From the NCBI GenBank assembly GCA_965238135.1, contig OZ250177.1, positions 541,744 to 605,743 of the forward strand: a DNA stretch of 64,000 nt, given 5' to 3'. The notes under the pieces are model-generated. The model had not been told where the DNA came from. It ran no database searches and saw only the letters and a program-made list of their open reading frames with translations. Below are positions 2,120-52,258 of this stretch, piece by piece. This DNA is from Candidatus Multivorans sp. (GTDB taxonomy: Bacteria; Acidobacteriota; Thermoanaerobaculia; Multivoradales; Multivoraceae). Every line of letters starts with the position of its first letter. Within the stretch, counting starts at the first letter, position 1. The position numbers were made by a program, and so were the translations under genes.

Positions 2120-2281
2120 CACTCTTGTTTGGTCCCACCGGGTTGGCCCCACCGGGATGGCTCTGCGCCGCCTGGTGGGCGGCGCGCCGGCGGTTGCGCT
2201 TTACTCGGTCTTTACAAACGAAGGGGAGGATCGCGCGCCGTGACCGGAAGTAACGGGGCGCACACCAGAACGAGGGGCACA

Positions 2282-6575: not shown

Positions 6576-8051
6576 CTAAGGAGCCTGCTGCTTTTTGGCA
6601 ACGCGATCACGGACCTGTCGCCACTCTCGGGCCTCACTGCCCTCGCGGAGTTGGAACTCGACACCAACTCGATCGCGGACGTGTCGCCGCTCTCGGGTCT
6701 GACTGGACTTTCCTCGCTGGATCTCGCCGGAAACCGGATCACGAGTGTGTCGCCGCTCTCCGGTCTTTCCGGCGTTGAGGGGCTGAATCTCTCCACCAAC
6801 GGGATCACGGACGTATCGCCGTTGTCGGGGCTGACCGCCCTGAGACGTCTGTACCTTCGCAACAACGCGATCGCGGACATAGCGGCGCTCTTGGGCCTCA
6901 CGGACCTCAGGCAACTGAACCTCGATGGCAACAGGATCACGAATGTGTCTCCGCTCTCAAGTCTGACGAAGCTCGATCGGCTGGTTCTCCAGAACAACTC
7001 GATCGCGGAGATAGCGCCACTCTCAGGTCTCACCGGCCTTACGCAACTCGACCTCGACGACAACTCGCTCACGGCCCTGGGTGCGCTCTCAGGCCTGACG
7101 AATCTCAGGTGGCTGTATCTTGAAAGGAACTGCTTGACGAGCATCGACGCCTTGACGAGCAATACTGGATTGGGTGCCGGTGACCGCATCGGACTTCGGG
7201 AGAACGCCCTGGACGCTGACTCGCTCGCCAACGGCGTAACCGCACTGCGGGACCGCGGAGCGACCGTCCTAGTGACGGAGGCGCCGACGGCCAGAGTCGG
7301 CGCGCCGGCACACCTGATTGCGATGCCGGGGAACGGGGAGCTAGCTCTGACCTGGCCTGCCCCGCGAGCCGCGGTCGACATCCCGGCTTATGAGGTGCGC
7401 TGGCGTTCGGCCATCGGGACCTTCAGCGATTGGTCGACCGTTCCGTGCTCGTCGAAGGGTCGGCACCTGCTGAGTGGTCTAGTCAACGGCACGACATACA
7501 CGGTGGAACTACGGGCGGCTGGCCATGTCAGTAATGGCGTGAAGAGCGTTACCGCCACACCCACCAGCACGGCCGTTGTCGAGCCGGTGGAGACGATGTT
7601 GTGGGCAGCTTTGACGACACCGGGTGAGGTACCGTCGATATACGACGACACCTTTGAGTGGCTAGTCTCGGCGAGAGGAGCTTGGCCGATGCTGGTAGCG
7701 GAGGCGACCGTTTACCAGCCGCCGGTATACCTCCGTGAACTTGAGATTGCTCAGGGTCAGGAGCGAGGTTCCCACGTTGAGATTGCGCTCTCGACAACAT
7801 CGACGGGTTTGTCGTCGCTACCACCGTGGATGTTCGGTTGGCGAGTCCTGTTCTCGGTTCACGATGTCGGGCTGAACGAAGCGCTCCTCGACGAGGACGG
7901 CTTACCGCTTGTTCAAGCACAACTGAATGCTCGCGGGGAGGGCCGGTTCGCTGGAACGCTCGAGGGCGAGCTCGACACGTTCTGGGCCGCGATCTCGGAT
8001 AGCGGCGACTACGACTGGAGTGAGGGCCTGTACGTTGAACTGAGGCCCTGA
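6576..8051 (+). pseudogene. 3' portion of the IS-disrupted giant surface protein gene (LRRs, LRR C-cap, FN3, C-terminal domain of unknown function)
   Basis: Frame is open from the first base after the right IS end (LRSLLLFGNAITDLSPLSGLTALAELELDTNSIADVSPLS...). It continues the LRR register of the upstream fragment and has no signal peptide or start of its own. It repeats the module order of the upstream part (LRR - LYLxxNCLTxIxALTSNTGLGxGD cap - FN3 YEVRWRS...TYTVELRAAGH). Confidence 0.85.
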
Positions 8052-19823: not shown

Positions 19824-19826
19824 GAG

Positions 19827-21278
19827 ATGTCCGTCAGCACTCTGGTCAAGTCCATTCAGAACATCATGCGCCAGGACGCTGGGGTGGACGGCGACGCGCA
19901 GCGCATCAGCCAACTGTGCTGGATGTTCTTCCTCAAGATCATCGACGACCAGGACCAGGAACTCGAGCTCTTTGACGACGGCTACGGCTCGCCCGTCCCT
20001 GCAGATCTGCGATGGCGGAGCTGGGCGGCCGACCCGGAAGGCATCACCGGCGAAGAGCTGCTCGACTTCGTCAACGGCGATCTCTTTCCACAGCTCAAGG
20101 AACTCCCGCCCAGGGCAGGCCCTCGCGCGAACGTCGTGCGCGACGTGTTCGAGGACGCCTACAACTACATGAAGTCTGGTCAGTTGATGCGGCAGGTGGT
20201 CAACAAGATCAACAGCATCGACTTCAACAACCTGGCCGCCCGCCAGCACTTCGGCGACATCTACGAGCAGATTCTGAACGACCTGCAATCGGCCGGCAAC
20301 GCGGGTGAGTACTACACCCCGCGGGCCGTGACCACCTTCATGGCCCGGATGATCGACCCGAAGCCGGGCGAGATCCTGTTCGACCCGGCTTGCGGCACGG
20401 GCGGGTTCCTCACCTGCGCTATGCAGCACATGCGCGAGCGGTATGTGAAGCGGCCCGAGGACGAGGCGAGCATGCAGGTTTCGCTGCTCGCGGTGGAGAA
20501 GAAGCCGCTTCCCCACATGCTCGCCGTCACGAACATGCTGCTGCACGGCATCGAGGATCCGTCCTTCCTGCGCCACGACAACACCTTGGCGCGGCCCTAC
20601 ACCTCCTGGGGCCGCGACGAGCGCGTGGACATCGTGCTGACCAATCCGCCGTTCGGCGGCAAGGAGGAGGATGGCATTGAGTCGAACTTCCCACAGCACT
20701 TCCGAACGCGAGAGACGGCGGACCTGTTCCTGGCCCTGATCATCCGGCTACTCAAGCCTGGAGGCAGGGCCGCCGTCGTCCTGCCAGACGGCTCCCTGTT
20801 CGGCGAAGGCGTCAAGACGCGGCTCAAGGAGCACCTGATGAAGGAGTGCAACCTTCACACCATCGTGCGCCTGCCGAACTCGGTGTTTCGCCCCTACGCC
20901 TCGGTCGGAACGAACCTGCTGTTCTTCGAGAAGGGCGAGCCGACGAGGGACATCTGGTTCTGGGAGCATCTCGTACCCGAAGGCCAGAAGGCCTACTCCA
21001 TGACACGGCCCGTACGGGTGGAGCATCTCGACGACTGCGCCGATTGGTGGGGTGGGACGGAGCGCACCGGCCGGGAGGAGGGTGGCCGGGCCTGGAAGGT
21101 GAGCGCCGACGAGATCAAGGCGCGCGGCTACAACATCGACATCAAGAACCCTCATACCGAGGAGGAGGACCTTGGCGATCCCGAGACGCTTCTGGAGGAA
21201 CTGACGAGCGCCGAGGCTGAGGTGCTGTCGGTGCGGAGTGAGTTGAGGCGAATTCTGACTGAGGCGCTCCTACGGTGA
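19827..21278 (+). CDS. hsdM: Type I R-M N6-adenine DNA methyltransferase subunit HsdM
   Basis: Motif I FDPACGTGGFL and motif IV LTNPPFGG; HsdM N-terminal domain. Start is 4 nt after the hsdR stop. Confidence 0.92.
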   Translation: MSVSTLVKSIQNIMRQDAGVDGDAQRISQLCWMFFLKIIDDQDQELELFDDGYGSPVPADLRWRSWAADPEGITGEELLDFVNGDLFPQLKELPPRAGPRANVVRDVFEDAYNYMKSGQLMRQVVNKINSIDFNNLAARQHFGDIYEQILNDLQSAGNAGEYYTPRAVTTFMARMIDPKPGEILFDPACGTGGFLTCAMQHMRERYVKRPEDEASMQVSLLAVEKKPLPHMLAVTNMLLHGIEDPSFLRHDNTLARPYTSWGRDERVDIVLTNPPFGGKEEDGIESNFPQHFRTRETADLFLALIIRLLKPGGRAAVVLPDGSLFGEGVKTRLKEHLMKECNLHTIVRLPNSVFRPYASVGTNLLFFEKGEPTRDIWFWEHLVPEGQKAYSMTRPVRVEHLDDCADWWGGTERTGREEGGRAWKVSADEIKARGYNIDIKNPHTEEEDLGDPETLLEELTSAEAEVLSVRSELRRILTEALLR

Positions 21279-23044
21279 ACGCCGACCGCTTGCTCGCCCT
21301 CTACGACCGCGTGGCGGACGCGCCGGACGCCATCGGCCGCCTGAGCCGGTTCGTGCTTGACACCGCCGTGCGCGGCAAGCTCGTGAAGCAGGATCCGGCG
21401 GATGAACCGGCATCAGAGTTGCTGCGACGGATCGACGCCGAGAAAGCGCGAATGGTCAAGGCGGGAGAGATCAGAAAGCCCCGCAATCTGTCGACCGGTG
21501 AGGACTTGGTGGCACTCTTTGAGGTTCCGGCCAAATGGTGCTGGCGGCGCCTCGATACAATAGGAGCTATCGTTGGTGGTGGCACGCCATCGGCTGGCGA
21601 TCCTGCGAACTTCTCGGAGCCCGGAGAGGGCGTCGCGTGGTTGACACCCAAGGACCTCGGCAGCCTCGGAAGCTCATACATCGGCCGCGGTAGCCGCGAT
21701 CTCTCGGGAAAGGGCTTTCGTTCGTCATCGGCCACTCTCATGCCGACTGGGACTGTCCTCTTTTCAAGTCGAGCGCCGATCGGGTACGTCGCGATCGCTG
21801 CAAACCCGGTTGCGACGAATCAGGGGTTCAAATCCGTCGTCCCCTATGTTTCTGATTGTTCGAGGTACATAGCGCTGGTGATGCAGGCGTTTGGGCCTGC
21901 AATCGACGCCATGGCGTCAGGGACCACCTTCAAAGAGGTTTCGGGAAGGACTGTCGCCGGCGTTCCCTTCCCTCTCCCGACGCTCGCCGAGCAGCACCGC
22001 ATCGTCGCCAAGGTCGATGAACTCATGGCGCTGTGCGACCGTTTAGAGGAAGCTCGCGTCTCCCGGGAGGGCGCCCGCGACCGGCTGACGAGGGCCAGCC
22101 TGTCGCGCTTGGTTGCGGCAGAGGCAGAAGAAGCGCAGGCAGCTACGTTCCGGGTTCTTGCGCGTTTCACAGTCGATGCCCTTCCCGCGCTGACGGCCCG
22201 CGCCGACCAAGTCCAGGGCTTTCGCCAGACCATTCTCGGCCTCGCGGTCCGGGGAAGGCTGGTCGAGCAGGATCCCGCTGACAAACCGGCGTCGGAACTC
22301 CTGAAGCGGATCGCCGCCGAAAAGGCGCGAATGGTGGGGGCGGGGGCGATCCGGAAGCCACGCAGTCTGCCGAACGGTGAGGACTTGGCAGCACCGTTCG
22401 GGATTCCGGACACCTGGTGCTGGGACCGCCTCGATGCCATTGGAGCAATCGTCGGTGGTGGCACACCGTCTGCGAGCGATCACAAGAACTTTGCGCAATC
22501 GGGAGAGGGTATTCCGTGGCTCACGCCGAAAGACCTCGGCGGCCATGAAGACCTGTACATCGAACGCGGCAGCCGCGATCTGTCGACGAGTGGTCTGCGA
22601 TCGTCCTCGGCGACACTCATGCCTGCGGAAACAGTCCTTTTCAGTAGCCGTGCGCCGATAGGGTACGTGGCAATCGCGGCGAACCCAGTTGCCACCAATC
22701 AGGGCTTCAAGTCCATCGTCCCGTACGTGCCGGGCTGCTCCAGATTCATCGCCTTGGCGATGAGGGCGTTCGGGCCTGAGATCGCTGCCAGTGCTCCGGG
22801 GACGACATTCAAGGAGGTGTCAGGAAAGCTCGTCGCTGGCGTTCCCTTTCCTCTCCCGCCACTCGCCGAGCAGCACCGCATCGTCGCCAGGGTCGACGAA
22901 CTCATGGCGCTGTGCGACGGGCTGGAGGGAAGTCTTGCGACTGCGGACGACACGCGCGGCCGCCTGCTTGACTCTCTCCTCGATGAAGCGTTGGCCGCCG
23001 ACTGGGCCGCCACGGTCCAACACGTCGCGGAGTCTCAGCCATGA
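21275..23044 (+). CDS. hsdS: Type I R-M specificity subunit HsdS with two near-identical target-recognition halves
   Basis: Overlaps the hsdM stop (ATGA). Two ~290-aa halves, each with a TRD and the conserved LAEQHRIVA(K/R)VDELMALCD(R/G)LE spacer; halves are ~75-80% identical to each other. Confidence 0.88.
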   Translation: MNADRLLALYDRVADAPDAIGRLSRFVLDTAVRGKLVKQDPADEPASELLRRIDAEKARMVKAGEIRKPRNLSTGEDLVALFEVPAKWCWRRLDTIGAIVGGGTPSAGDPANFSEPGEGVAWLTPKDLGSLGSSYIGRGSRDLSGKGFRSSSATLMPTGTVLFSSRAPIGYVAIAANPVATNQGFKSVVPYVSDCSRYIALVMQAFGPAIDAMASGTTFKEVSGRTVAGVPFPLPTLAEQHRIVAKVDELMALCDRLEEARVSREGARDRLTRASLSRLVAAEAEEAQAATFRVLARFTVDALPALTARADQVQGFRQTILGLAVRGRLVEQDPADKPASELLKRIAAEKARMVGAGAIRKPRSLPNGEDLAAPFGIPDTWCWDRLDAIGAIVGGGTPSASDHKNFAQSGEGIPWLTPKDLGGHEDLYIERGSRDLSTSGLRSSSATLMPAETVLFSSRAPIGYVAIAANPVATNQGFKSIVPYVPGCSRFIALAMRAFGPEIAASAPGTTFKEVSGKLVAGVPFPLPPLAEQHRIVARVDELMALCDGLEGSLATADDTRGRLLDSLLDEALAADWAATVQHVAESQP

Positions 23045-24189
23045 CCCGCGTCCCGGTATCGTCCGAGATGCTGCGCTGGGCCTGCGAGCGCTCCGGTCGC
23101 GACGTCGCGGACCTCGCGGCCCGTGTTCCTCAGCTTCCGGCTTGGGTCCGAGGCGAGAGACAGCCGACGCTCAAACAGTTGGAGAGGCTGGCCACGGCTA
23201 CGCGGACGCCATTCGGTTATCTGTTCCTGACCGCGCCGCCGGAGGAGCGTCTTCCGGTTCCCGACTTTCGTACGGTGTGGGGTGCTTTCCGGGCGAGACC
23301 GACCCCCGACCTGCTGGACACGCTGTACAGCATGCAACGTCGCCAGGAGTGGCTCCGGGAGAGCTTGGTCGAGAGCGACGTGGGACCGCTGTCGTTCGCT
23401 GGAAGCGCCCGCCTGACGGATGACCCGGCCTCCGTGGGTCGGGAGATGCGGCGAGCACTCGGTCTCGATGACGGCTGGGCTGCGGAAGTGAGCACCTGGC
23501 AAGAGGCTGTGAGGGAGCTTCGCCGGGCCATTGAGCAGGTCGGCGTGATGGCGGTGATCAACGGAGTAGTCGGGAACAACACGAGCCGGAAGCTGAGCGT
23601 GGAGGAGTTTCGCGGCTTCGCGCTCACGGATCCTTACGCCCCGTTGATCTTCGTGAATGGCGCTGACGCCAAGTCGGCGCAGATGTTCACTCTCGCCCAC
23701 GAGTTGGCCCACATCTGGCTTGGCACGGAGGGGGTCTCCGGCTTCGAGTCCCTGTTCCCCGGCGGCTCGGACGTGGAGGACTGGTGCAACGCGGCCGCGG
23801 CTGAACTCCTCGTCCCTTCGGAGGAAGTGGCACCTCGTTGGAACGAGGTGAAGAGGGGACCAAGGCCGTTCGAGACGCTCGCCCGGGCGTTCAAGGTGAG
23901 TCCGGTTGTTGCCGCCCGCCGGGCCCTGGACCTGAGTCTTGTCGACCGCGACGCCTTTCGCGACTTCTACAAGGGGTACGTCAAGCGCGATCTCGCGAGT
24001 GGCGCGAGTTCCACCGGGGGCAACTTCTACAACAACCAGAACACCCGTGTCGGCGAGCTGTTCGCGTCCCACGTGCTCCGTGCGGCGATGGAGGGCCGAA
24101 TCGGGTTCAAGGAAGCCTACGACCTGACTGGCTTGCGTGGAGGAACCTTCCAGAAGTACGCGAGGCGACTGGGGGTGAATCTCCCATGA
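23041..24189 (+). CDS. HTH-domain plus ImmA/IrrE-family zinc metallopeptidase (COG2856-like)
   Basis: Overlaps the hsdS stop. Central HEXXH motif HELAHIWLG within an ImmA/IrrE-like region; N-terminal helix-turn-helix-like segment. Confidence 0.75.
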   Translation: MTRVPVSSEMLRWACERSGRDVADLAARVPQLPAWVRGERQPTLKQLERLATATRTPFGYLFLTAPPEERLPVPDFRTVWGAFRARPTPDLLDTLYSMQRRQEWLRESLVESDVGPLSFAGSARLTDDPASVGREMRRALGLDDGWAAEVSTWQEAVRELRRAIEQVGVMAVINGVVGNNTSRKLSVEEFRGFALTDPYAPLIFVNGADAKSAQMFTLAHELAHIWLGTEGVSGFESLFPGGSDVEDWCNAAAAELLVPSEEVAPRWNEVKRGPRPFETLARAFKVSPVVAARRALDLSLVDRDAFRDFYKGYVKRDLASGASSTGGNFYNNQNTRVGELFASHVLRAAMEGRIGFKEAYDLTGLRGGTFQKYARRLGVNLP

Positions 24190-26398: not shown

Positions 26399-26982
26399 GG
26401 TGTTCCGCGTCGCCCCTCGAACCGACCCTAGAGCCCGGCCGTGGATTTCCCGCTACGGCCGCGGATCCGCTTGCTGTGGTGTGACGCGTCACCCTGGTCG
26501 GACGAGGGAAGGCTCGGCCAACCGACAACGTCGAACCCGCGGAGGGGCCGGGGAACGCCACACTACCGCAGCCGTTCGGATCCATCGGAGAGGCATGTCG
26601 GGTGCTGCTGCCGGTGGCAGTTTCGGCCCCACCGGTCTGGGTGGCCTTGAAGTCTTCCCGCAGGGATCAACTCTTGACGGGAGCGACCCCGCCGGTGGAA
26701 GCCGGCGTATTGCCGGCGCGCCGCACCGGGGACCGGGGCCACGGGGTCGCTCCCGTCACGCTCTGGACGCATGTCGCGGCCGGGGCGTTTCATTCTCGGG
26801 AGGGGATCCACTGGTGAGAAGAGAAGACTCAGTTGCACGTTCCTGGAAGTCGCTCGGGCCGATTGGTGGAAGTGAGCGGCTGTTGTTGCCCTTCCGTCGC
26901 TGTACGGGGCCTGGCGCGGCTAGACTGTGGAACTGGACCGGAGCCGGGCGGCTGGGTTCTGGCGGCGAGAGGTAGACAGGGG

Positions 26983-27828
26983 ATGGACATTCGAGAGCGT
27001 CAGAATTGCCAGCGGTCGTTGGAGAGGCTGGTCGCCGTAGGTTGGCTCTATGGACGGGTCAAGAAGGTGGAAGGCTGGCGGCTGGTGTTCATAGTAGGCG
27101 TCGCGGGTCTGCTGCTGTCGGGTCTGGCCGTGGAAGCGGATGCCTACAGCCGAGTGGCGGCGATCGTCGTCGTCTTGCTCTGGTGCATAGACCAGGCGGT
27201 TCTGGTTGCATGCGCCGACAGGATGAAGGAAGAGGCGGCGGCGATTCAAGAAGACTTCGACTGTTTCGTCCTCGGCCTACCGTGGCCGGAGCACTGCGGT
27301 GTCGGGCGGCCGACGGATGACAGGGTGAGAGACTTGGCGACGATGGCAGGTGGGCGAGGCGAGCAGAGGGAGGAGCTGGCTGACTGGTACGGAAGGGACG
27401 GTATTCCCGAGGAACCGCTGTCAGCGCGGCTGTATTGCCAGAGAACCAACTGCCGGTGGGACGAACGACTGCGCAAAGAGTGGATCTGCGCCATCAGATC
27501 CTTCGCGGGCGGGTCGCTGGCTGTGGGCCTCGTTGTGGCAGCGCTGGCCGGCGTCTCGCTGCTCGGGGTGGTTCTTGCGGCGGCGGCGGGACTCAGGCTT
27601 GTTGCGTGGTTGGCGATGGAAGTCAGGGCTCAATCGGCGGCGAGGAAGCGTATGAAAGAGCTGCATGGCTTCCTGTCGCGGCCCGGCGCGCAGACCGGCA
27701 GGCTGACCCTTTGCGACTCCCGGCTCGTGCAGGCGCGACTCTTCGAGCACCGGCGGCTTAGCCCGACTGTGCCGGATTGGTTTTATCGGTTGAGGAAGAC
27801 GGATCACGAGGCGATGGAACCGGGTTGA
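26983..27828 (+). CDS. Membrane protein with 2TM + soluble linker + 2TM architecture (candidate pore-forming effector, SLATT/S-4TM-like)
   Basis: ATG at 26983. TM pairs LVFIVGVAGLLLSGLAVEA / VAAIVVVLLWCIDQAVLVACA and GGSLAVGLVVAALAGVSLLGVVLAAAAGLRLVAWLAMEV, separated by a ~90-aa soluble region; charged C-terminal tail. No catalytic motifs. Confidence 0.55.
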   Translation: MDIRERQNCQRSLERLVAVGWLYGRVKKVEGWRLVFIVGVAGLLLSGLAVEADAYSRVAAIVVVLLWCIDQAVLVACADRMKEEAAAIQEDFDCFVLGLPWPEHCGVGRPTDDRVRDLATMAGGRGEQREELADWYGRDGIPEEPLSARLYCQRTNCRWDERLRKEWICAIRSFAGGSLAVGLVVAALAGVSLLGVVLAAAAGLRLVAWLAMEVRAQSAARKRMKELHGFLSRPGAQTGRLTLCDSRLVQARLFEHRRLSPTVPDWFYRLRKTDHEAMEPG

Positions 27829-27950
27829 ATAGGCACCGTAGCCAACTGGCTGGCCGGACGTGGAAGCAGCCGTCGAGAAGGCCACGGTCTGGGCGCGGAG
27901 GGGCTTCGGATCGTGGAGCGTCCGCCGGTGTCTTCGAAGGGAAGGGTCGA

Positions 27951-28376
27951 CTACGTTCGTCGCTTGCGCAGGATGGAGTCCACGAAGCGGAGAACCGTGG
28001 CCCGTTCGTCGGCGTCGAGTTCCAGTATCTGTCGAACCAGCACGACGGTTGAGTTACGCCGCTGTGCGTCCGACGGGTCCCCGTCGGTGGGAACCCAATG
28101 TGCCCAGGCCGCTAAGGTCTGAAAGTTCAGCCCATAGAGGTCGGCTAGTTCCAGGAGCACGATCGGGTCGGGCTGTCTGATTAGGCCCCGTTCGATCTGG
28201 GACAGGTATGCGTTGGATCGCCCGATGCGTCGTTCTACCTCGCGAAGAGACAGTTGGTAGTGCAGGCGAGCGCGGCGCAGAACGCCACCCACCTGCGGAG
28301 GATCTTGGCGGTGAGTGCGATCTGGCTTAGCCGGGGACCGGGCGGTCGCTGATCTACGGGAAGCGTGATCGGTCAT
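27951..28376 (-). CDS. XRE-family HTH transcriptional regulator with C-terminal extension, divergent from the TRIP13-SMODS operon
   Basis: HTH segment LSLREVERRIGRSNAYLSQIERG followed by a ~70-aa C-terminal domain. Start uncertain (28376 or 28490). Confidence 0.65.
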   Translation of the reverse strand: MTDHASRRSATARSPAKPDRTHRQDPPQVGGVLRRARLHYQLSLREVERRIGRSNAYLSQIERGLIRQPDPIVLLELADLYGLNFQTLAAWAHWVPTDGDPSDAQRRNSTVVLVRQILELDADERATVLRFVDSILRKRRT

Positions 28377-28601
28377 GGTTCTGGGGCCGCTACGACCGAG
28401 GAGCCCGGGAGCCGCAGTGTGTGTGTGTCGAGCGACCCGGCGTTTCGGTTGTTCCGAGCGCGATCCTCTCGGTGCGAGAGGGGCTCGCATGGCTTCGCGG
28501 CTGTCCAGCGCAGGCGACGCTCGCCCTTCCGCCGCCGGGGGAGTTCCAGTCGGTGGAGCCGGGGGTTGCGGTCGATCGGAATGCGAAGTAGAGTTGCACC
28601 T

Positions 28602-29522
28602 ATGCAAACCAGAAGCGCAAATGGGCTGATGGCGGAGTCGGTACGCGTCGTGCGCGTGATGCCAGATCCGGCGTACGCGGGCCTATGGGACTCGATTGTA
28701 GTGGATGCCTCGGTAAAGGACCGGCTGCTCCGAGCGACAGTGTTGAATCTCCGGCTACGCGCCGAGCTGCCGTTCGAGACGACGGCGCTGCACGGGCTCG
28801 TCCTGCTGCATGGACCGCCAGGAACGGGCAAGACGACGTTGGCGCGCGGGCTGGCCCAGGAACTGGCGAAGATCACGGCGGACCGTAAGGCTCGACTGGT
28901 CGAGGTCAACCCGCATGGTCTCATGAGCGCCGAACATGGGGAGAGCCAACGAGCGGTAACGCAACTGCTTACAGAGTACGTGCCGAGCCTTGTTGACGAC
29001 GGGATGGCAACGGTGGTTCTCCTCGACGAGGTCGAGTCGATGGCCATCGCGAGGAGTGAAGCGTCGCTGGGCGCGAATCCAGCAGACGTGCATCGAGCGA
29101 CGGATGCAGTGCTGGCGGCGCTCGACTTGAATACGACGGAGGTCCCCAATTTGGTCTTCGTGGCGACGAGCAACTTCGTCGACGCGCTGGACGAGGCATT
29201 CTTGTCGCGGGCAGACGTCCATATCTGCGTCCCGGCGCCGGATTCTGCGGGGATCGTGGAGATTCTGAAGCACGCGTTTCGGTCGATGGCGCCGGCTTTT
29301 TCCTGCCTCGGCGAGTTGGCCTCCGACCCTCGACTCAAAGAGGTCGCAGGGCGTCTGGCGGGCGCGGACGGCCGACGAGTCCGCAAGACGATCATGGAAG
29401 CGATGTTAGGGCGCCAGGAGACGGTACTGGATCCGGGAAGCACAACGATCGATGATCTGCTCGCGGCGGCGACGCGGGTTATGGAGAACAGCGACATCGA
29501 GCATGGAAGCTCGGAGGGCTGA
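28602..29522 (+). CDS. TRIP13/Pch2-like AAA+ ATPase (CBASS Cap6-like)
   Basis: Walker A [23 protein letters not shown]. The blocks [69 protein letters not shown] align closely with conserved TRIP13 blocks ([22 protein letters not shown] / [21 protein letters not shown] / VLIDEVESL / [30 protein letters not shown]). Start could be 28581-28629. Confidence 0.8.
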   Translation: [306 protein letters not shown]

Positions 29523-29523
29523 A

Positions 29524-30018
29524 ATGGAGCGACAGAGGACAATCGCCGCGTCACCGGTTCGGAGCGCCGCCGAAGCGTGGGACGTTGTAACTACACTGAT
29601 CGCAGAGACGCTTGAGCGCAGCCCTGAGGTCCCGGATGGGAGCGTAGCCGAGGAGTTTGCGGCGCTGGAGGGGCTGGGCCCGGCTCTCATCGCGGCCGGG
29701 CATTTGGAATCGGACGGCCTGGTGCTCTGCGACGATGGCCTGCATGTGACGATTCGGGTCTTGACCGCGGATGCGGCACTCGCAGTCAAGGAGAATCTCA
29801 ATCCCGTGCCCGGTGGCGGGCGTGCTTCGGGTGCGTGGATCCTCTATCTACCTTCGCCCGGAGCACTCGAAACGAGCGTGGCCGGCGCGGCGAAGCGGTC
29901 TGCGCATCTATCTGTAGACGCACCGCCGAAGTCGGCGCCGTTGGCAAAGGGGAAGAAACGGGAGGCAGGTTCGGTCATTGATCTGGGCGCACTCCGCAAG
30001 GCGACATCGAAATGGTGA
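29524..30018 (+). CDS. Small protein of unknown function (164 aa), translationally coupled between TRIP13-like ATPase and SMODS; candidate HORMA-domain protein
   Basis: GGAGGG RBS overlapping the TRIP13 stop. No recognisable motifs; basic disordered C-terminal tail (PPKSAPLAKGKKREAGSVIDLGALRKATSKW). HORMA assignment is inferred from context only. Confidence 0.5.
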   Translation: MERQRTIAASPVRSAAEAWDVVTTLIAETLERSPEVPDGSVAEEFAALEGLGPALIAAGHLESDGLVLCDDGLHVTIRVLTADAALAVKENLNPVPGGGRASGAWILYLPSPGALETSVAGAAKRSAHLSVDAPPKSAPLAKGKKREAGSVIDLGALRKATSKW

Positions 30019-30518
30019 CATCGACCTCGGTCTCGACCTATACGCGCACTCATACGGCTACGCACTTGGCGGACGTCATTCTGGGCTCGATTGCCGACAT
30101 CTTGGGAACGCTTCGCATTGATCCCACGCGGCTGTTTGCGGATTGGGAGACGGATCAGGCGGCCATCTCGAACTGGATTGCGGAAGGCTCGCTCAAGTGC
30201 GTCGCACTCGAATGCCACCGCCCGGACGGAACGGTGAACCCGATCTTCGAGTTCCCGCTGTCGTACACGGGCACGGGGCCGGGGAATCGGAAGTTCACGG
30301 CTGATCGGGCCGCGCTGGCACGCTATCTGGCGAAGCTGCAGCTAGTGCCGGCTGGAACTACATATCGCCTCTTCTGCAGCTTCAATGGACCCCATTCGGT
30401 GCAGGCGGGATGGTCCCCTGGGACAAGGGCGTCCGTTGGGGGCCTGCGCTCGGTGAGCTTTGGGACCCTCGCTGCCGGACCGCACGCCGGCGCGGGAATG
30501 CGCTACTACCGAAAGTAG
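30012..30518 (+). CDS. Small protein of unknown function (168 aa), translationally coupled (ATGGTGA overlap); candidate HORMA-domain protein (Cap7-like size)
   Basis: Overlaps the previous ORF's stop by 7 nt. Gene-like codon usage. No sequence motif recognised. Confidence 0.5.
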   Translation: MVTSTSVSTYTRTHTATHLADVILGSIADILGTLRIDPTRLFADWETDQAAISNWIAEGSLKCVALECHRPDGTVNPIFEFPLSYTGTGPGNRKFTADRAALARYLAKLQLVPAGTTYRLFCSFNGPHSVQAGWSPGTRASVGGLRSVSFGTLAAGPHAGAGMRYYRK

Positions 30519-30526
30519 GTGAGAGG

Positions 30527-31384
30527 ATGAGCTACGTCGACGACGCGTTCGATAAGTTGAAGTCGAATCTCGAGATTACGAAGACCGAGAGCCACCAGGC
30601 GCAGATTCGGCACCAGTTGGTGCGCGAGCACATCGAGGCCTCGTGGGAGTTGGTGGAGCATTTTCTCACCGGCAGCTACAAGCGACACACCAAGACGAAG
30701 AAGCTGAAGGACGTCGACATATTCGTCGTCGTCGATCCAGAGGGGCCGCAGGCCGCATTGGCTGACGGTACGGGAACGGCGGCTGTGCTTGCGTTGCACG
30801 ACTTACTGGCCGAACGCTGGAACGATCTGGGCGCCGACGACAACGTGGTGACGATCCACTATGGCGACGAAGACGTCGCGTCGTACGAGGTCGCTCCGGT
30901 CTTCCCGCGAAGCGGTGGCGGCTATTCGATGCCCAACGGCGTGGCGTGGATGGACACCGACCCGCAGGAGCAAGCGGAGCTCGTGACGGTGAAGAACAAG
31001 GAGTGCGACGCGAAGTTCGTGCCCTTTGTGAAGATGGTCAAGGGAATCAACCGCGAGGCAGGAGACCCAATCGAGCCCGCGTTTCTGATGGAGGTGATGG
31101 CGCTGGACCTTGTGGTAGAGCCGTTTGGCCGGTACAGGGACGAGATCAGGTTCTACCTGGCTTCGGTCGCGGACCAGATTACCGACGACTGGCGGGATCC
31201 AGTCGGGCTTGGTCCGGACGTGAATGCCCGGATGGGGGCCCGCCGTCGGAAAGAGCTGTCGGAGATTGTGCGCGGGTGGCTGGGTGTCGCCGAGGAGGCG
31301 TTGCAGCTTGAATACGAAGGCAAAGAACGGGCGGCGGTAGAGGCGTGGCGCGAGCTGTTCGGCTGGCGCATGCCGAGGCCATGA
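30527..31384 (+). CDS. SMODS / CD-NTase-family nucleotidyltransferase (cGAS/DncV-like cyclic-oligonucleotide synthase)
   Basis: Hallmark pol-beta NTase active site GSYKRHTKTKKLKDVDIFVVVD (GS...[DE]h[DE]h) plus a downstream acidic triad residue in VTIHYGDEDVASYEVAPV. 285 aa. GGTGAGAGG RBS 8 nt after the preceding stop. Confidence 0.8.
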   Translation: MSYVDDAFDKLKSNLEITKTESHQAQIRHQLVREHIEASWELVEHFLTGSYKRHTKTKKLKDVDIFVVVDPEGPQAALADGTGTAAVLALHDLLAERWNDLGADDNVVTIHYGDEDVASYEVAPVFPRSGGGYSMPNGVAWMDTDPQEQAELVTVKNKECDAKFVPFVKMVKGINREAGDPIEPAFLMEVMALDLVVEPFGRYRDEIRFYLASVADQITDDWRDPVGLGPDVNARMGARRRKELSEIVRGWLGVAEEALQLEYEGKERAAVEAWRELFGWRMPRP

Positions 31385-39678: not shown

Positions 39679-40254
39679 TCACTGTTGGTCCGGGCGCGGC
39701 GGATTGATCATCACGTGAGCGCCTGCAGTGCCCGGCGCCATGAGCCAGGGCGCTCCGGGGACCGGTCGGGTCGTGAGGCCGGTCGACTCCGGAGTGGCGT
39801 AGGGCGTGTAGATGACCCACCGCAGGTAGGGATCGATCACCTTGCCGCTCTCCGCGTCGAATCCGCTGCCGTGAAGCACATACAGCGTGCGCGGCTCGCG
39901 CGGCATGGGCAGGCTGCCCTCCGCGATCTCGTTTTCGCGCATCGCTACCCTTTCCTCACCGGTGATCCCCTGGGCCAGAAGCTCGCGGCCGCGCGCCATG
40001 AACGGCTCGAGCGACTCGTGGTAGCAGGCGACGCTCCAGCGCTCCTCGCCGGGCCGCGCGGCCAGGCAGACCAGGTCGTTGCTGCCCGCACGCAACTCGA
40101 CGACCTTGCCGTCGCCGTCCCAGCCGAGCACGCGCGCGCCGTCCCGGCGGTCGTCGGGTGCGGCCTGGATGGCGGCGGCAAGCTGCGCCGCGGCGTCGGG
40201 GGGCTCGGCGGCGCGGGAAGTGGCGCCCGGAAAAGCGAGAGCGAGCACGCCCAT
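39679..40254 (-). CDS. Secreted hypothetical protein
   Basis: Signal peptide MGVLALAFPGATSRAAEP; gene-like codon bias; start uncertain. Confidence 0.45.
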   Translation of the reverse strand: MGVLALAFPGATSRAAEPPDAAAQLAAAIQAAPDDRRDGARVLGWDGDGKVVELRAGSNDLVCLAARPGEERWSVACYHESLEPFMARGRELLAQGITGEERVAMRENEIAEGSLPMPREPRTLYVLHGSGFDAESGKVIDPYLRWVIYTPYATPESTGLTTRPVPGAPWLMAPGTAGAHVMINPPRPDQQ

Positions 40255-40358
40255 GGTTGCTGCGAGAGTGGTCGTCCTGTTGTGCACGTCGTACCTCCTG
40301 TTGCGCCCACCGGGTGTTGGGCAGGCCGGCGACAGCGTATCGCGGTGCTGATCCTGTT

Positions 40359-42206
40359 CTAGTGCTTGGAAGCTGCGCTTCGTCGGCGTGTCCGTTTGAG
40401 CCCTTGGAGCAAGCGAAGTGTCTTCTGGACATCGGTCGGCACAACCTTCATGTTCTCGACGATTGCCTCTGGAGTCAGGTGCGACGGGAACTCCTTCGTC
40501 TGCAGCCAACCTCTCAAGCCGCTCAGAACCTTCTTCGCGTCGCCCCACCTTGGCAATTGCTCGTCGTCGAGTGGCACCTGCTTTCGGGCTTGCTCCATCG
40601 CTGTTGCGAGGGCTAAGCGACGGTCTTCTTGGTGGATTCGCTCGGCGACTCTCTCCCAGATTCGCTGCCGCTGATCGCCTAACAGGCGATCCCATTCACG
40701 CGCGAAGCGACCCCGCAGCCTTCTCCAGACGCCTTTCTTGTTGGCTGCGGCGGCCTGGGAGTCGAGCAGTCGCAGAACAGCATCGCGGTCGAGCAAGTAG
40801 TTCTCTAGCTCGTTCTTCTCCCAGAGCACGAGCCGGAAGTCGAGTTTGTAGGCTTCGCTCTTGGAGCGCTTGTTGCGATCAAGTAGGGCCCCCCGCCTCG
40901 CCCTGTCGGTTCGGTAGTCGCGATCACCGATAGCGACGAACTTCATCGGTGCAGGGCTGTCCAGCACCGGGCTGCTAGCGATGTCGCGGACCTGACGCGC
41001 CAAGTCGAGGACCCGGGCCTCAATCGGGCCTTGGTAGGTGTACAAGAACGTCAGGTCTCGCCAGATGGCCTGTTGTTTCTTGGTGCCCCAGTGCTTGCGT
41101 GCGAACGCCTCGATCAGCTTGCGGTCGCTCTTGTTCTCGACGAAGACCACCGCGCGATTCACGAGCAGGGGCACCAGTTCCATCTGGTCCATAGCGCCGA
41201 GATCACCTAGCAGTTGGAGTTGCTCGGGTTGTACCGACAATGGCACGGCTCGGCCGTCCATGCAGACCCGAACAGAGCCTGCCGGCGCCGAGTTCAGGAG
41301 TTGGGGCGAGTGGGTGGCGAGAACGAACTGCTCCTCTTCCTCGACTGCCAGACGCTGCAGGATGCCCATCAACTGCCCCTGAAGGCGCGCGTGGAGGTGA
41401 GCGTCCGGTTCATCCAGGAGGAACATCGCTGCCCCTGGCGCTAGGACGGAAGCCAGGATCTGGAGAGCTTGGTGGAATCCGGATCCGGCAGTGATCACGT
41501 CTCGCTTGCGTCGCAGTGCCTTGTCGCGATAGCTAGCTTTCAGGAAGCGGTCGATGTCAAGGTTGAAGTCGACCTCGATGCTGCTCTCGGGAAACAGCTC
41601 AGCCAATAGCGCCTGGAGTTTCTTCCACTGGTGCGGTTCGTCCTGCTGGAGATGCCAAAGCTGGTTGCGGACCATTTCGCCGTGCCGCTGTAGACGTAGG
41701 CGGTCCTGCCGTGCTGGCGGCGTCAGGTACTCCTCCTGCGGCAGGAAGCCGGCGAAGATGGGAATCAGTCGGATCTCGCGACGGTGGATAGCTTCTTGCC
41801 AGGCCCCCTTTGTGCTCGGCTGGATGCTGAAACGGTTGTAGCTGATGCGAATCTGAAACGCGATCTCAGCGCCGCTTGCGAACATAGCCTTGAGCGAAAT
41901 GGGTCTCGGTTTCGACTGGTGGGTGATCAGCCCGTCGGGCCAGAGATCGCCTGGATGAGCGGCCGGCAACGCGCCGAACTCGTCGAAACCAACGGTTCGG
42001 CTGGAGAGTGCGAGATCGGCGGAGTCTCGCCCGTTGCCGTTGAGTTTGCGAGTTGTCTCGATGCAGTACTGGAACAGCGTCAGGGCCTGGAGGATGGTCG
42101 ACTTGCCGCTGTTGTTGGCACCGACGAGCAACGTGATGTCCTCAAAGTCGACGCTCGTCGCGTCGCGGAAGCGCTTGAAGCCCTTGATCGTGAATCTGCG
42201 GAGCAT
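40359..42206 (-). CDS. OLD-family ATP-dependent endonuclease (AAA_21/ABC ATPase + Toprim), stand-alone (class 1 OLD / fused PARIS-like)
   Basis: Walker A LLVGANNSGKSTIL, Walker B MFLLDEPDAHLH, C-terminal Toprim-like segment VVFVENKSDRKLIEAF...FVAIGDRDYR. 615 aa. No adjacent UvrD-like helicase. Confidence 0.72.
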   Translation of the reverse strand: MLRRFTIKGFKRFRDATSVDFEDITLLVGANNSGKSTILQALTLFQYCIETTRKLNGNGRDSADLALSSRTVGFDEFGALPAAHPGDLWPDGLITHQSKPRPISLKAMFASGAEIAFQIRISYNRFSIQPSTKGAWQEAIHRREIRLIPIFAGFLPQEEYLTPPARQDRLRLQRHGEMVRNQLWHLQQDEPHQWKKLQALLAELFPESSIEVDFNLDIDRFLKASYRDKALRRKRDVITAGSGFHQALQILASVLAPGAAMFLLDEPDAHLHARLQGQLMGILQRLAVEEEEQFVLATHSPQLLNSAPAGSVRVCMDGRAVPLSVQPEQLQLLGDLGAMDQMELVPLLVNRAVVFVENKSDRKLIEAFARKHWGTKKQQAIWRDLTFLYTYQGPIEARVLDLARQVRDIASSPVLDSPAPMKFVAIGDRDYRTDRARRGALLDRNKRSKSEAYKLDFRLVLWEKNELENYLLDRDAVLRLLDSQAAAANKKGVWRRLRGRFAREWDRLLGDQRQRIWERVAERIHQEDRRLALATAMEQARKQVPLDDEQLPRWGDAKKVLSGLRGWLQTKEFPSHLTPEAIVENMKVVPTDVQKTLRLLQGLKRTRRRSAASKH

Positions 42207-42493
42207 CTTCTTTGTCTATTGGCGGTTGTCAGCGGGGCGCCCGGGTCAGTTGCTCGAGGCTCTGCGCTGACGACCGAGAGTTCCCCAGCGCAGAGCCAGA
42301 GCCGGTCACTGGCCGGTGCGTCTCTGGCGAGTGAATCCTACGGCAACTCGTAGCTTCATGGAGCCTCCGGAGGTCGGGCACGGCTCCGTTTCCGCTATCG
42401 TCGTCGCAGACGTATGGAAGCGGGCGACGGAGTTCTTCGCGTGCCATCGGAAGGCCGGCGGTTGAACCCGGCGTCGATACAGGAGCCAAGCTC

Positions 42494-49832: not shown

Positions 49833-50840
49833 CTACAAGTCAGCGCCTTCAGGCCGGGGTCCGCGTTCGTTTGCGGCGCAGAGTTCCAGGAACTCCGCTT
49901 CGCTCCGGCACCTGAGCGCGGCGCGAATCAACTCGGCCACCGGTACCTCCCCGAGTTCCAGGAGCCGGACCTTCAGGGCGGGCGTGGTCGGGATGCCGCG
50001 CTCCCTGAGGACTGCCGTCACCGTCTCGTAGCCTGTCTCGGATCGTATCTCGGCCCGGCCCTCGTCGCGGTGGCGGCGAAGCCATCGATCGTCGTCCGGA
50101 CCGGTGCCTTCCGCGGCGCCAAGGGCTCTCCCGACGCGATGCAGTGCGGCCTCCGTCGAGGCCGACATCGTGTGCTCGTTCAGCGCTCGGTGGATCTCCT
50201 TCGCGGTCCAACTGGGGAAGGCGCGGCTGGTTCGCGCGGTGCGGAAGCGGCCTCCTTCGAGAACATGGATCATAAGTCCCGAGACACGAGACTTCGGCCG
50301 GCTCGGCGACGGCGCGTCGGGCACGTCGACCCAGACCTCGGGGAAGCCACACGCTTCGTACAGCGGCAGCTTGCGTACCCTGACATCGGTCGAGTAGTCG
50401 ACCTCCAGGATCACGTCCGGCAGAGCATCGCCGTCCACGTCAACCTTCGGGGTCAGTTCATCGGCTGGCGGTGGGTGCAGGTAGAGGATCTGGTCGGCCT
50501 GCATCAGGACATGAGGTCTACCGCCAGCATCGAACCGTACGAGGTCTGTCGTCCCGTACGCCTCGATCGGCGATCCGCGTTCCGCAGCCAGTCGTTCCGA
50601 CAGCTTGGCGAGCCGGTGTGACGGGCCTTCGTGGAACCGCGTGGTCGGTTCGCCGACGACCATCGCCGTTTCGGTGCGCGCCTCCCAGTACTCGAGGCGG
50701 CCCTCGTAGTCCTCGATGTCTTCGAGTGGAATGTGAACCGGCCGGCAACCGGGGAAGTCGGCCGGATCGAGCGGCGCCGCTTCCGGGTCGCGCTCTTCCT
50801 CCGACGGCGACAGCGTCGCCGTGTGCGCGGGCTCAGCCAT
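49833..50840 (-). CDS. Uma2-family (DUF820) PD-(D/E)xK endonuclease-like protein with C-terminal extension
   Basis: Core DVILEVDYSTDVRVRKLPLYEACGFPEVWVVD (D...E.K region) typical of Uma2/DUF820. Start at 50840 (alternative 50870). Confidence 0.65.
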   Translation of the reverse strand: MAEPAHTATLSPSEEERDPEAAPLDPADFPGCRPVHIPLEDIEDYEGRLEYWEARTETAMVVGEPTTRFHEGPSHRLAKLSERLAAERGSPIEAYGTTDLVRFDAGGRPHVLMQADQILYLHPPPADELTPKVDVDGDALPDVILEVDYSTDVRVRKLPLYEACGFPEVWVDVPDAPSPSRPKSRVSGLMIHVLEGGRFRTARTSRAFPSWTAKEIHRALNEHTMSASTEAALHRVGRALGAAEGTGPDDDRWLRRHRDEGRAEIRSETGYETVTAVLRERGIPTTPALKVRLLELGEVPVAELIRAALRCRSEAEFLELCAANERGPRPEGADL

Positions 50841-50937
50841 GGCGGTGATCCTATCGGGCCCGAGGACCATGGCTGAACCACTACACCTCCATCTTCGCCT
50901 GTCCGTGACGGGAGAGCTGCTGGGATCCTGCTTGGCC

Positions 50938-51600
50938 CTATGCTGCGATTCTCGGCTCCTCCGCCGAGAACGCCTTGTCGGCTGACTCAAAGCGCGTATG
51001 GAGCTCATCGAGACGGTGGGTGAAGTCCATGGTGCCCGTCGTCTTACGGTCCGTCCAGTACTTCCCCGTGAGAGTGGTTGGTCGAAGCCGCGGCCCATGC
51101 GTCCCGACGACGATGGCTCCATGATGCATCTCGCTGATCCGCTCGTTACGCAGATGAATGTTGGGCTCGTTGGCGTAGACACCGATCACTTGGAAGCCCT
51201 CTCCGTTGGGTGACGGTTGCACATGGCTGGCGATGAAGGACGACTCCGACTCAGGTGTCATGAGGTGCATCTGAAGAGTCGACAGCGTCTGCTTCACCCC
51301 CATGTAGCAGAGGATCGTTGGGATTGTCTCGCCCGTGTCGGGATCAATGTAGCTGGACTGAAGTTCGACTCGCCAAGTGCCTCGTAGATCCGGTCTGTTG
51401 ACAAGCCAGCCTTGCAGAAAGGACTGCCGCCAAGCGTAGCGCTCGAAGAGAAAGCCAAGCGAGACCAAAACTCCCACGACGCTGGAGAAGGGCGCGGCGT
51501 GATCCCAAGAAACAGGGGTGCCGCGAGCCACCAACACGGTGGACCATACGATCGCGGAGATTCCGACAAAAACGGTGATGTGGAGGCGCTCAAGCCTCAC
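50938..51600 (-). CDS. N-terminal 2-TM + C-terminal beta-rich domain protein; candidate membrane effector of the adjacent SMODS gene (Cap15/S-2TMbeta or SLATT-like)
   Basis: GTG at 51600, 3 nt after the SMODS stop (translational coupling); alternative ATG at 51666 overlaps SMODS. TM helices ITVFVGISAIVWSTVLVA and FSSVVGVLVSLGFLF, then a ~150-aa region rich in alternating hydrophobic residues. Lies in a lower-GC islet. Confidence 0.55.
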   Translation of the reverse strand: MRLERLHITVFVGISAIVWSTVLVARGTPVSWDHAAPFSSVVGVLVSLGFLFERYAWRQSFLQGWLVNRPDLRGTWRVELQSSYIDPDTGETIPTILCYMGVKQTLSTLQMHLMTPESESSFIASHVQPSPNGEGFQVIGVYANEPNIHLRNERISEMHHGAIVVGTHGPRLRPTTLTGKYWTDRKTTGTMDFTHRLDELHTRFESADKAFSAEEPRIAA

Positions 51601-51602
51601 GA

Positions 51603-52258
51603 CTAGCGTGCTCCCAGGTAGGCCCACGCGGCATTGATGAAGGCGCGTGCCTGGACCGGTGTCCACGGTTGAGACTGTGCAAAGAGGAGCTTAACTTTGT
51701 CGACCTCACGCCACGTCTGCCAACTCGATCCGCTGTCGATCTGGGTCCCGAGATACCCCAACACGGCTCCGAGTCGGGCATACCAGCCGTAGCGATCGAA
51801 ACAGGTGTCGGGAGCGTTCCAGGTCAAGCACTCGAGGAGGTATCCTGGGATCGACTGAGCGGCAGGATGGCCGGCGTCGTCCAGTTCGCTGCGGAGATTC
51901 TTCAGGATGCGCACCAAACCACGGTAGCGCCGATGTGTGCGATCGTTCTTGTCGCGTCCGTTCTCATAGTGCTCCTTTGGCCACGAAGCGAAGAGTGCCT
52001 CCGGGTACTGTCCAACGCCGAGAAGGCGTCCGTGTAGAGCACGCCGACGTCTACATCACTATCGGCCCGGACGTTTACACGGTTGCGATAGGAACCCTGA
52101 ACGAAGACACGGACAGAGTGCGAGCGCAGCTTCGGACCAAGTACAGCGTGGCGGTCTATCGCGTTCCTGATGATCCCAACAGCGTTGTCGCAGCGAGTCT
52201 GCTCAGTCGAGCCTGGCGACTGAGCAGACTGCGTGAAGGTAGTTTCCCAGTCCGGCAT
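51603..52258 (-). pseudogene. SMODS/CD-NTase nucleotidyltransferase with an apparent +/-1 frameshift near 51990
   Basis: N-terminal frame encodes ...VRVFVQGSYRNRVNVRADSDVDVGVLYTDAFSALDS (GS...DxDh NTase motif) then runs into non-protein-like sequence and a stop. A second frame continues ...PEALFASWPKEHYENGRDKNDRTHRRYRGLVRILKNLRSELDD...AWAYLGAR* to 51603. Either a genuine pseudogene or an assembly/sequencing indel. Confidence 0.65.

Follow-up and report, generated by a model that had tools for sequence, protein, structure and literature searches.

In the PARIS defence system, the anti-restriction protein Ocr frees the Toprim nuclease AriB from the hexamer formed by its partner ATPase AriA, upon which AriB dimerizes, cleaves transfer RNA (tRNA)-Lys and stops translation (PMC11464382, PMC10802264). 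PARIS can be embedded in BREX loci, where it senses Ocr (PMC11341690, PMC11464382), as exemplified by the two-gene PARIS inside a Salmonella BREX (PMC11341690), and fusions of AriA and AriB have been reported (PMC9122126, PMC11464382). P2 OLD carries the ATPase and the Toprim domain in a single chain and acts as an abortive-infection nuclease: ATP hydrolysis activates the enzyme, which severs the two strands of tRNA anticodon stems (PMC12445682). In addition, OLD-type ABC ATPases linked to Toprim domains are frequent back-up effectors in BREX and BREX-related (BR) loci (PMC12839542). A solitary ATPase-Toprim gene was analysed in a 64,000-nucleotide stretch (the window) of Candidatus Multivorans sp., a member of the Acidobacteriota (assembly GCA_965238135.1, contig OZ250177.1, positions 541,744 to 605,743 of the forward strand). 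Its 615-amino-acid (aa) product is probably an autonomous, ATP-gated defence nuclease of the PARIS/OLD group, in which an OLD-type ABC ATPase and an AriB-like Toprim nuclease are combined in one chain.

The gene is complete on the minus strand with an ATG start, in agreement with the open reading frame (ORF) of the original prediction, and its start codon is sound because the N-terminus is collinear with that of >100 full-length homologues, which share 43–79% identity with the protein. The ORF is a member of a length-conserved family with >1,300 database matches, counted as cluster representatives at 90% identity, which is far beyond chance. The AlphaFold2 (AF2) model of the full-length protein had a predicted local distance difference test (pLDDT) value of 85 and a predicted template modelling (pTM) score of 0.75, and the model of the C-terminal half reached a pLDDT of 89.6.

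AriB, more than OLD or GajA, is the nearest relative of the nuclease domain. In the comparison of the C-terminal half with known enzymes, the tabulated value was 10.5 for AriB (8v46_D, 197 residues aligned), followed by 8.3 for the C-terminal region of class 2 OLD (6nk8), 7.6 for PH0156, 7.2 for class 1 OLD (6p74), 6.7 for DnaG primase, 6.3 for Retron Ec67 and 6.0 for GajA. A narrow C-terminal profile (A2) found nothing at E ≤ 10 among the PDB sequences, and the broadened profile A4 matched AriB as the only Toprim protein (E 0.0056), aligning VEGxD with LLVEGRHD, DRDY with CDREF and EIENYLL with SLENYFF. The active site of AriB is formed by E26, D30, D88, E90 and E122 (PMC11464382), to which E357, D361, D428, D430 and E468 correspond in the profile alignment. 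All five are invariant in the family alignment A1 of 42 sequences, from which the statements on invariance in this text are taken, and E357 and D361 follow a beta strand (VVFVENKSD). The C-terminal Toprim-like motifs proposed from the sequence are therefore real in their acidic residues, namely E357, D361, D428, D430 and E466/E468. In like-for-like hhalign runs, the C-terminal profile reached a probability of 79% against the Toprim core of AriB with all three motifs aligned (E 1.6e-5), versus 14% against P2 Old with the first two motifs only (E 0.002). Moreover, the PADLOC model of fused AriAB (PDLC02981) matched the protein with E 7.8e-21 and 72.4 bits, placing residues 260–487 on positions 332–537 of the 694-position model; this is a different profile from the original AriAB fusion profiles, whose thresholds are 80 and 20 bits for two subtypes. 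The PADLOC AriAB match to the C-terminal half alone was local (E 4.3e-5).

An exhaustive hidden Markov model (HMM) search with the C-terminal profile recovered 865 representative clusters (50% identity) at E ≤ 0.001, most of which were 570–620-aa proteins with an N-terminal ABC ATPase. Among 75 distant carriers with about 20% identity, the Toprim glutamate and the DxD pair were the sole invariant residues, and the aspartate of E-x-x-x-D was nearly invariant; eight of them matched DUF4435 weakly (best E 7e-7). The searches with AAA_21, DUF4435 and a Toprim_OLD model that the original prediction had proposed gave a divided outcome. AAA_21 matched the protein itself, but DUF4435 (PF14491, 27-bit criterion) was found neither on the full protein at E ≤ 0.01 nor on the C-terminal half at E ≤ 10, and OLD-like_TOPRIM (PF20469) gave no match on the protein. 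PHROGs likewise returned no match for the isolated C-terminal half.

The module composed of the Toprim core and the following helical domain was also observed upstream of long HEAT-repeat arrays, in proteins of 650–1,100 aa with no ATPase (P0157, P0162, P0166, P0168, P0176, P0190, P0209 and P0246). These carriers keep all catalytic motifs in the form VVVEDxSD, ADRDY, VEIENYL and WCDAK, and the motif pattern suggests that the module may be a portable effector cassette joined to different sensor domains.

The N-terminal part was confirmed as an ABC-type ATPase by Pfam AAA_15 (E 3e-22, 80 bits) and AAA_21 (E 1e-18, 68.9 bits), both above the cut-offs that define the PARIS ATPase (32 bits and 27 bits, respectively; PMC9122126). 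The Walker A motif GANNSGKST and the Walker B motif LLDEPDAHLH named in the original prediction were located at residues 29–37 and within residues 261–272. Because the P-loop, the ABC signature (GSGxxQ in A1), D265-E266, the D-loop and H299 are all invariant, the ATPase looks catalytically competent. The secondary structure of the AF2 model places a beta-rich insert and a two-helix hairpin (residues about 163–204) inside this domain. A Foldseek search with the full-length model gave the class 1 OLD of Thermus scotoductus (Ts OLD, 6p74) as the best match (E 1.4e-13), followed by SMC heads, PtuA and GajA, and phmmer against AriA reached only E 0.023. PADLOC matches were numerous and unspecific, including NsnB, AriA, AriAB, Old, AbiLi, mad3, PtuA and GajA; the two PADLOC 'AriA' models are as long as Pfam AAA_15 and AAA_21 and therefore say little. 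All NCBIfam matches were far under their cut-offs.

In sum, the protein is OLD-like in overall architecture and AriB-like in its nuclease domain. As in the class 1 OLD proteins P2 Old and Ts OLD, one polypeptide starts with an ABC ATPase, which a linker connects to a C-terminal Toprim domain and its helical extension, encoded by a stand-alone gene with no helicase, retron reverse transcriptase or other conserved partner. The hhalign comparison of the full-length family profile with P2 Old (84%) was collinear over the C-lobe of the ATPase, the linker and the first strand of the Toprim domain. The same likenesses, together with the Ts OLD fold match and a solitary, partnerless state that equals the definition of class 1, would suit a class 1 OLD-type DNA nuclease whose Toprim domain nicks or cleaves phage or host DNA in response to a signal other than anti-restriction, for example inhibition of RecBCD or depletion of nucleotides; DNA nicking or cleavage has been reported in vitro for Ts and Bp OLD and for GajA. 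This alternative also draws on nine of the 75 distant relatives that weakly matched OLD-like_TOPRIM (best E 6e-5) and on K558 in the helical domain. K562 of Bp OLD is required for DNA cleavage and that lysine is missing from AriB (PMC10802264); the invariant K558 is a candidate counterpart of this catalytic lysine, and a 'GK' is kept in distant relatives as is 'WCDAK' in the HEAT-fused ones. On the other hand, the founding class 1 member P2 OLD acts on tRNA in vivo (PMC12445682), so that 'OLD-like' no longer implies a DNase, and the window protein differs from class 1 OLD in lacking the OLD-like_TOPRIM match, in carrying the 'EIENYL' motif typical of the DUF4435 side and in being encoded on the chromosome, whereas P2 Old is prophage-borne. 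A DNase of the OLD type is the main rival explanation but is considered unlikely. The classification of the original prediction, a stand-alone OLD-family ATPase-Toprim protein comparable with class 1 OLD and fused AriA-AriB, stands with the refinement that the nuclease is AriB-like, and the protein is best regarded as a divergent representative, in single-chain form, of the OLD/PARIS group of ATPase-Toprim proteins.

For the autonomous AriB-like nuclease, the following mechanism may be proposed. The OLD-type ABC ATPase would serve as both sensor and switch, joined via the conserved linker to a two-metal Toprim nuclease with a helical extension. In the uninfected cell the ATPase would keep the nuclease inactive inside an oligomer, and a phage cue would elicit an ATP-dependent conformational change, after which E357, D361, D428, D430 and E468 could cut double-stranded nucleic acid. 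The likeliest target would be the anticodon stem of host tRNA, as for AriB and P2 OLD, halting translation and aborting the infection. Since AriB and P2 OLD converge on this outcome, an ATP-gated abortive-infection nuclease that most likely cleaves tRNA is proposed, even if tRNA and DNA are about evenly balanced as the substrate. A defence activity as such is likely. Because ATPase and nuclease are covalently joined, activation by release of the nuclease, as in two-gene PARIS, is excluded, and gating must therefore be intramolecular or proceed by rearrangement of the oligomer, as in P2 OLD or GajA. In BREX-embedded relatives the cue would most plausibly be an Ocr-like anti-restriction protein or the failure of the restriction system. 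Such an anti-restriction cue is plausible for that clade; for the solitary window copy it is possible, given the type I restriction–modification (R-M) system of the window, and is regarded as rather doubtful.

The genomic site supports a defence gene that was acquired horizontally. In two metagenome contigs (L099 and L100), the insert of 2,188 bp, consisting of the gene and its own 5' spacer, is replaced by 126 unrelated bp. Both contigs keep the order GNAT-ExoEndoPhos-sulfotransferase-glutathione S-transferase (GST) / 202-aa-hydrolase-DUF418 with 75–96% aa identity to the window, and 143 bp separate the GST gene from the 202-aa gene. The right junction lies about 13 bp past the stop codon, beyond which the sequence CCGCGATACGCTG...CAACAGGAG is common to all alleles. 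The insert was also examined for signs of a transposon-like origin, and it is flanked by neither a target-site duplication nor terminal inverted repeats nor a recombinase. A third locus, L003 of a related genome, carries an orthologue at the same site (L003 5873-7929), whose 5' spacer is not homologous to that of the window. The proteins are 76% identical, versus 90–93% for those of the flanking genes, and the synonymous divergence (dS) is 1.1, versus 0.14–0.6. The GST / 202-aa site thus exists in at least three states, empty and with two diverged alleles. The ratio of nonsynonymous to synonymous divergence (dN/dS) of 0.14 in both halves shows that the gene is under purifying selection, and a decaying remnant was rejected on this ratio and the fully intact motifs. 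The gene has a GC content of 0.61 and a third-codon-position GC content (GC3) of 0.76, compared with 0.86–0.94 for its neighbours, and resembles the other defence genes of the window in this respect.

Turnover of this kind is characteristic of defence genes and speaks strongly against both a housekeeping function and a decaying remnant. A RecF/SbcC/Rad50-like DNA-repair ATPase with no role in defence could point to weak N-terminal matches to SMC_N, Rad50 and SMC heads and to the metabolic genes on either side. Those matches span the generic P-loop region only, and such a role would not explain why close relatives with otherwise conserved synteny lack the gene, why its GC3 is atypical and its divergence far above that of its neighbours, or why it encodes a Toprim nuclease with an AriB-type active site and has relatives inside BREX loci. 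The protein does not behave like the RecF/SbcC-like housekeeping ATPases that the original prediction had named among its refuting conditions, and this explanation is effectively refuted.

The genomic context was sampled for 12 distinct family members, whose neighbours differ. No conserved partner gene was found among them, the downstream genes of the homologues not being homologous to each other. In the clade with 43–47% identity, all five sampled members lie inside BREX-1 or BREX-related loci with spacers of 0–73 bp: three (P0096, P0107 and P0115) directly follow PglX in type 1 BREX, and two (P0111 and P0118) are located in BREX-related (DUF1156/DUF499) loci between an SNF2/NOV_C helicase-nuclease and a DUF1156 methyltransferase. 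In the window's own clade (at least 51% identity), six of the seven sampled members are solitary among metabolic genes and intact, and the remaining one (P0071) stands beside an HsdM-like methyltransferase, an nSTAND3 ATPase and an S8 protease. This pattern of BREX-embedded and solitary clades fits the literature on PARIS in BREX and on back-up effectors. A scan of genome contigs with the family alignment was dominated by generic ABC-ATPase motif matches and gave almost no full-length relatives, and so was of no use for context statistics.

The fixed position in the BREX-embedded clade, after PglX in BREX-1 or before the DUF1156 methyltransferase in BR loci, raises the question of whether the protein is a non-autonomous accessory of BREX or R-M, recruited for instance by PglX or a methyltransferase. 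The window copy would then be an orphan that has little function or serves in trans the type I R-M 17 kb away, whose hsdRMS operon is complete. This explanation has difficulty with the six solitary yet intact members of the window's clade and with the dN/dS of 0.14 in both halves. Furthermore, two-gene PARIS, cloned on its own, functions autonomously (PMC9122126, PMC11464382), and deletions of PARIS in Salmonella left methylation and the core BREX defence unaffected (PMC11341690). A purely accessory role is hence improbable, and the autonomous nuclease is preferred.

In addition, a BREX-related locus already holding a family member (L096) was observed to carry, after its DUF1156 methyltransferase, a second AAA_21/AAA_15 ATPase that is shorter (418 aa) and a 213-aa gene with no Pfam match (L096 11957-13866). 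These may be an ATPase-effector pair of two genes, stacked within that operon.

The protein shares with PARIS the AAA_15/AAA_21-type ABC ATPase and the Toprim nuclease, the AriB active-site pentad and the embedding of relatives in BREX, as seen for Salmonella PARIS. The differences from PARIS begin with the lack of Pfam DUF4435 detection and the covalent fusion noted above, and the coiled-coil bundle of AriA, which serves hexamer formation and Ocr binding, is reduced to the two-helix hairpin. Further observations count against an autonomous AriB-like nuclease of the PARIS/OLD group. The ATPase comprises about 310 aa, compared with 464 aa in AriA (8ux9_B), and AriA was not among the top 50 Foldseek matches of the full-length model; an AriA-like hexamer is therefore unsupported, as is an Ocr-binding coiled coil. 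Foldseek with the isolated nuclease domain was not significant (E 0.14), and Pfam on residues 332–615 remained blank even at E ≤ 10, reaching no Toprim or DUF4435 model. The invariant K558 is a trait of DNA-cleaving OLD enzymes that AriB does not share and would leave room for DNase activity. No restriction system stands next to the window copy, and most members of its own clade are solitary. Unlike PARIS and P2 OLD, the family had no relatives in the scan of viral contigs and was not found on phage or satellite contigs. Finally, a consensus scan for promoters and terminators detected no sigma-70 consensus promoter, and terminator-like matches did not exceed the background level.

Other named systems were compared and rejected. 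Gabija GajA is likewise an ABC ATPase-Toprim fusion of similar length, with a PADLOC match of about 1e-16 and fold matches to 8sm3 and 8u7i; no UvrD-like GajB helicase lies beside the gene in the window, as the original prediction had stated and inspection of the neighbours bore out, or in the loci of solitary homologues. Menshen NsnB shares the ABC ATPase core and was the top PADLOC match (E 4.5e-31). NsnB ends in a DUF3696 helical tail and lacks a Toprim domain, and its partners are NsnA (DUF262) and NsnC (PMC12065111), whereas the C-terminus of the window protein is a Toprim domain and its neighbours include neither DUF262 nor NsnC. Septu was dismissed because no PtuB HNH gene is adjacent and the likeness to PtuA is confined to the ATPase motifs. 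The same holds for MADS (mad3), as for Menshen, Septu and Gabija: the PADLOC and NCBIfam matches span the ATPase only, and the defining partners are absent.

The coordinates of the gene, its domains and the surrounding features are collected in Table 1. The divergent GST gene across a 287-bp gap and the secreted hypothetical protein downstream were both noted from the sequence beforehand and were found again. The 202-aa downstream product has a putative signal peptide, its signal-peptide-like N-terminus (...MGVLALAFPGATSRAAEPP) being read from the sequence. The 202-aa gene was rejected as a partner because the alleles with an empty site also carry it and because the genes downstream of other family members show no homology to it. 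Within the spacer shared with the GST gene, a perfect 12-nt inverted repeat lies 52–91 nt upstream of the ATPase-Toprim start codon. It could be a candidate operator or 5' hairpin, and it is not kept in the L003 allele.

Table 1. Coordinates of the ATPase-Toprim gene, its parts and surrounding features (window positions unless another locus is named)
Feature	Coordinates	Strand	Remarks
ATPase-Toprim gene, complete	40359..42206	-	615 aa, ATG start; ORF list
OLD-type ABC ATPase domain, residues 1-310	41277..42206	-	Pfam AAA_15, AAA_21; Foldseek
Walker A / P-loop GANNSGKST, residues 29-37	42096..42122	-	G29, N31, S33, G34, K35 invariant in 42 homologues
ABC signature-like GSGFHQ, residues 241-246	41469..41486	-	G241, G243, Q246 invariant
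Walker B and D-loop MFLLDEPDAHLH, residues 261-272	41391..41426	-	L263, D265, E266, P267, D268, H270, H272 invariant
H-loop / switch histidine ATHS (H299)	41307..41318	-	A297, H299, P301 invariant
Linker between ATPase and Toprim, residues 311-350	41157..41276	-	Invariant LGAMD motif; L333, G337, A338, M342 invariant
Toprim catalytic core, AriB-like, residues 351-475	40782..41156	-	
Toprim glutamate motif E357-N-K-S-D361	41124..41138	-	E357, D361 invariant; equivalent to AriB E26, D30
Toprim DxD, D428-R-D430	40917..40925	-	Invariant in A1 and A3; equivalent to AriB D88, E90
E466-L-E468-N-Y470 motif	40797..40811	-	E466, E468, N469, Y470 invariant; E468 equivalent to AriB E122
C-terminal all-helical domain, residues 476-605	40392..40781	-	Follows Toprim core
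D556-A-K558 in helical domain	40533..40541	-	Invariant in A1
Inserted segment, gene and own 5' spacer	40305..42492		2,188 bp; tblastn synteny, global alignment
Spacer between ATPase-Toprim gene and divergent GST gene	42207..42493		287 bp; AAAGAAG just ahead of ATG
Inverted repeat arms GGCTCTGCGCTG / CAGCGCAGAGCC	42258-42269 / 42286-42297		12 nt each, perfect; 16-nt spacer
Downstream gene, 202-aa hypothetical	39679-40287	-	No Pfam match
Empty-site interval	L099 5858-5983		Same region in L100
LRR / fibronectin-III / Ig-domain proteins	2129-5083, 6651-8051, 8528-12952		Three large proteins
HsdR	17472-19823		Type I R-M operon 17472-23044
HsdM	19827-21278		Type I R-M operon
HsdS	21275-23044		Type I R-M operon
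Peptidase_M78 (IrrE-like) gene	23041-24189		After HsdS
S_4TM effector	26833-27828		CBASS module 26833-31384
Trip13-like AAA ATPase	28365-29522		CBASS module
Bacterial HORMA	30012-30518		CBASS module
SMODS cyclase	30410-31384		CBASS module
449-aa ORF	49833-51182	-	Weak Uma2 endonuclease match
Cap15 cyclic-dinucleotide receptor gene	50938-51666	-	Low-GC stretch (0.60)

The gene lies outside the main island of the window, as the original prediction had placed it, and is inserted separately, as a single gene, at a small variable site of its own. Its distances to the two CBASS modules, predicted as roughly 9 and 8.5 kb, are 8,975 bp to the SMODS gene (which ends at 31384) and 8,732 bp to the Cap15 gene (nearest edge 50938). 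The first of these modules is type III-like and contains the S_4TM effector, the Trip13-like ATPase, the HORMA protein and the SMODS cyclase; beside the Cap15 gene stands the 449-aa ORF with its weak Uma2 match. The complete type I R-M operon is followed by the IrrE-like peptidase gene. The window also encodes three large proteins with leucine-rich repeat (LRR), fibronectin-III and Ig domains, the last of which combines a lamin-tail domain with an Exo_endo_phos nuclease/phosphatase domain, DUF11 and fn3; the three are probably secreted or located at the surface.

A broader and more tentative picture, which has appreciably less in its favour than the assignment to the PARIS/OLD group, is that the family represents a branch of its own between OLD and PARIS that has not yet been modelled. 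Its members might be compact one-chain guards built from an AriB-like portable cassette with an OLD-like lysine, mounted on a minimal ABC ATPase or on HEAT arrays and, unlike AriB with its release, activated intramolecularly. The clade wired into BREX and BR loci could then act as an anti-anti-restriction back-up, and the window's clade could have escaped to serve as a sentinel on its own, hopping into small hotspots of the chromosome.

Taken on its own, the gene is most likely a solid but fairly ordinary defence gene, encoding an anti-phage "suicide" enzyme as a lone insertion between housekeeping genes. It extends a known theme and does not overturn the current understanding. The empty sites provide clean evidence for the mobility of a single gene, and the BREX-embedded and solitary clades offer a natural comparison of how far such a guard depends on an accompanying restriction system. 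The fusion poses the question of how an ABC ATPase gates a Toprim nuclease in cis, for which the compact 615-aa protein is a tractable model. Since the nuclease half is invisible to Pfam, family members are annotated just as 'AAA family ATPase', and defence genes would be better annotated, especially in Acidobacteriota and other environmental phyla, if the C-terminus were recognized as a Toprim domain of the AriB type.

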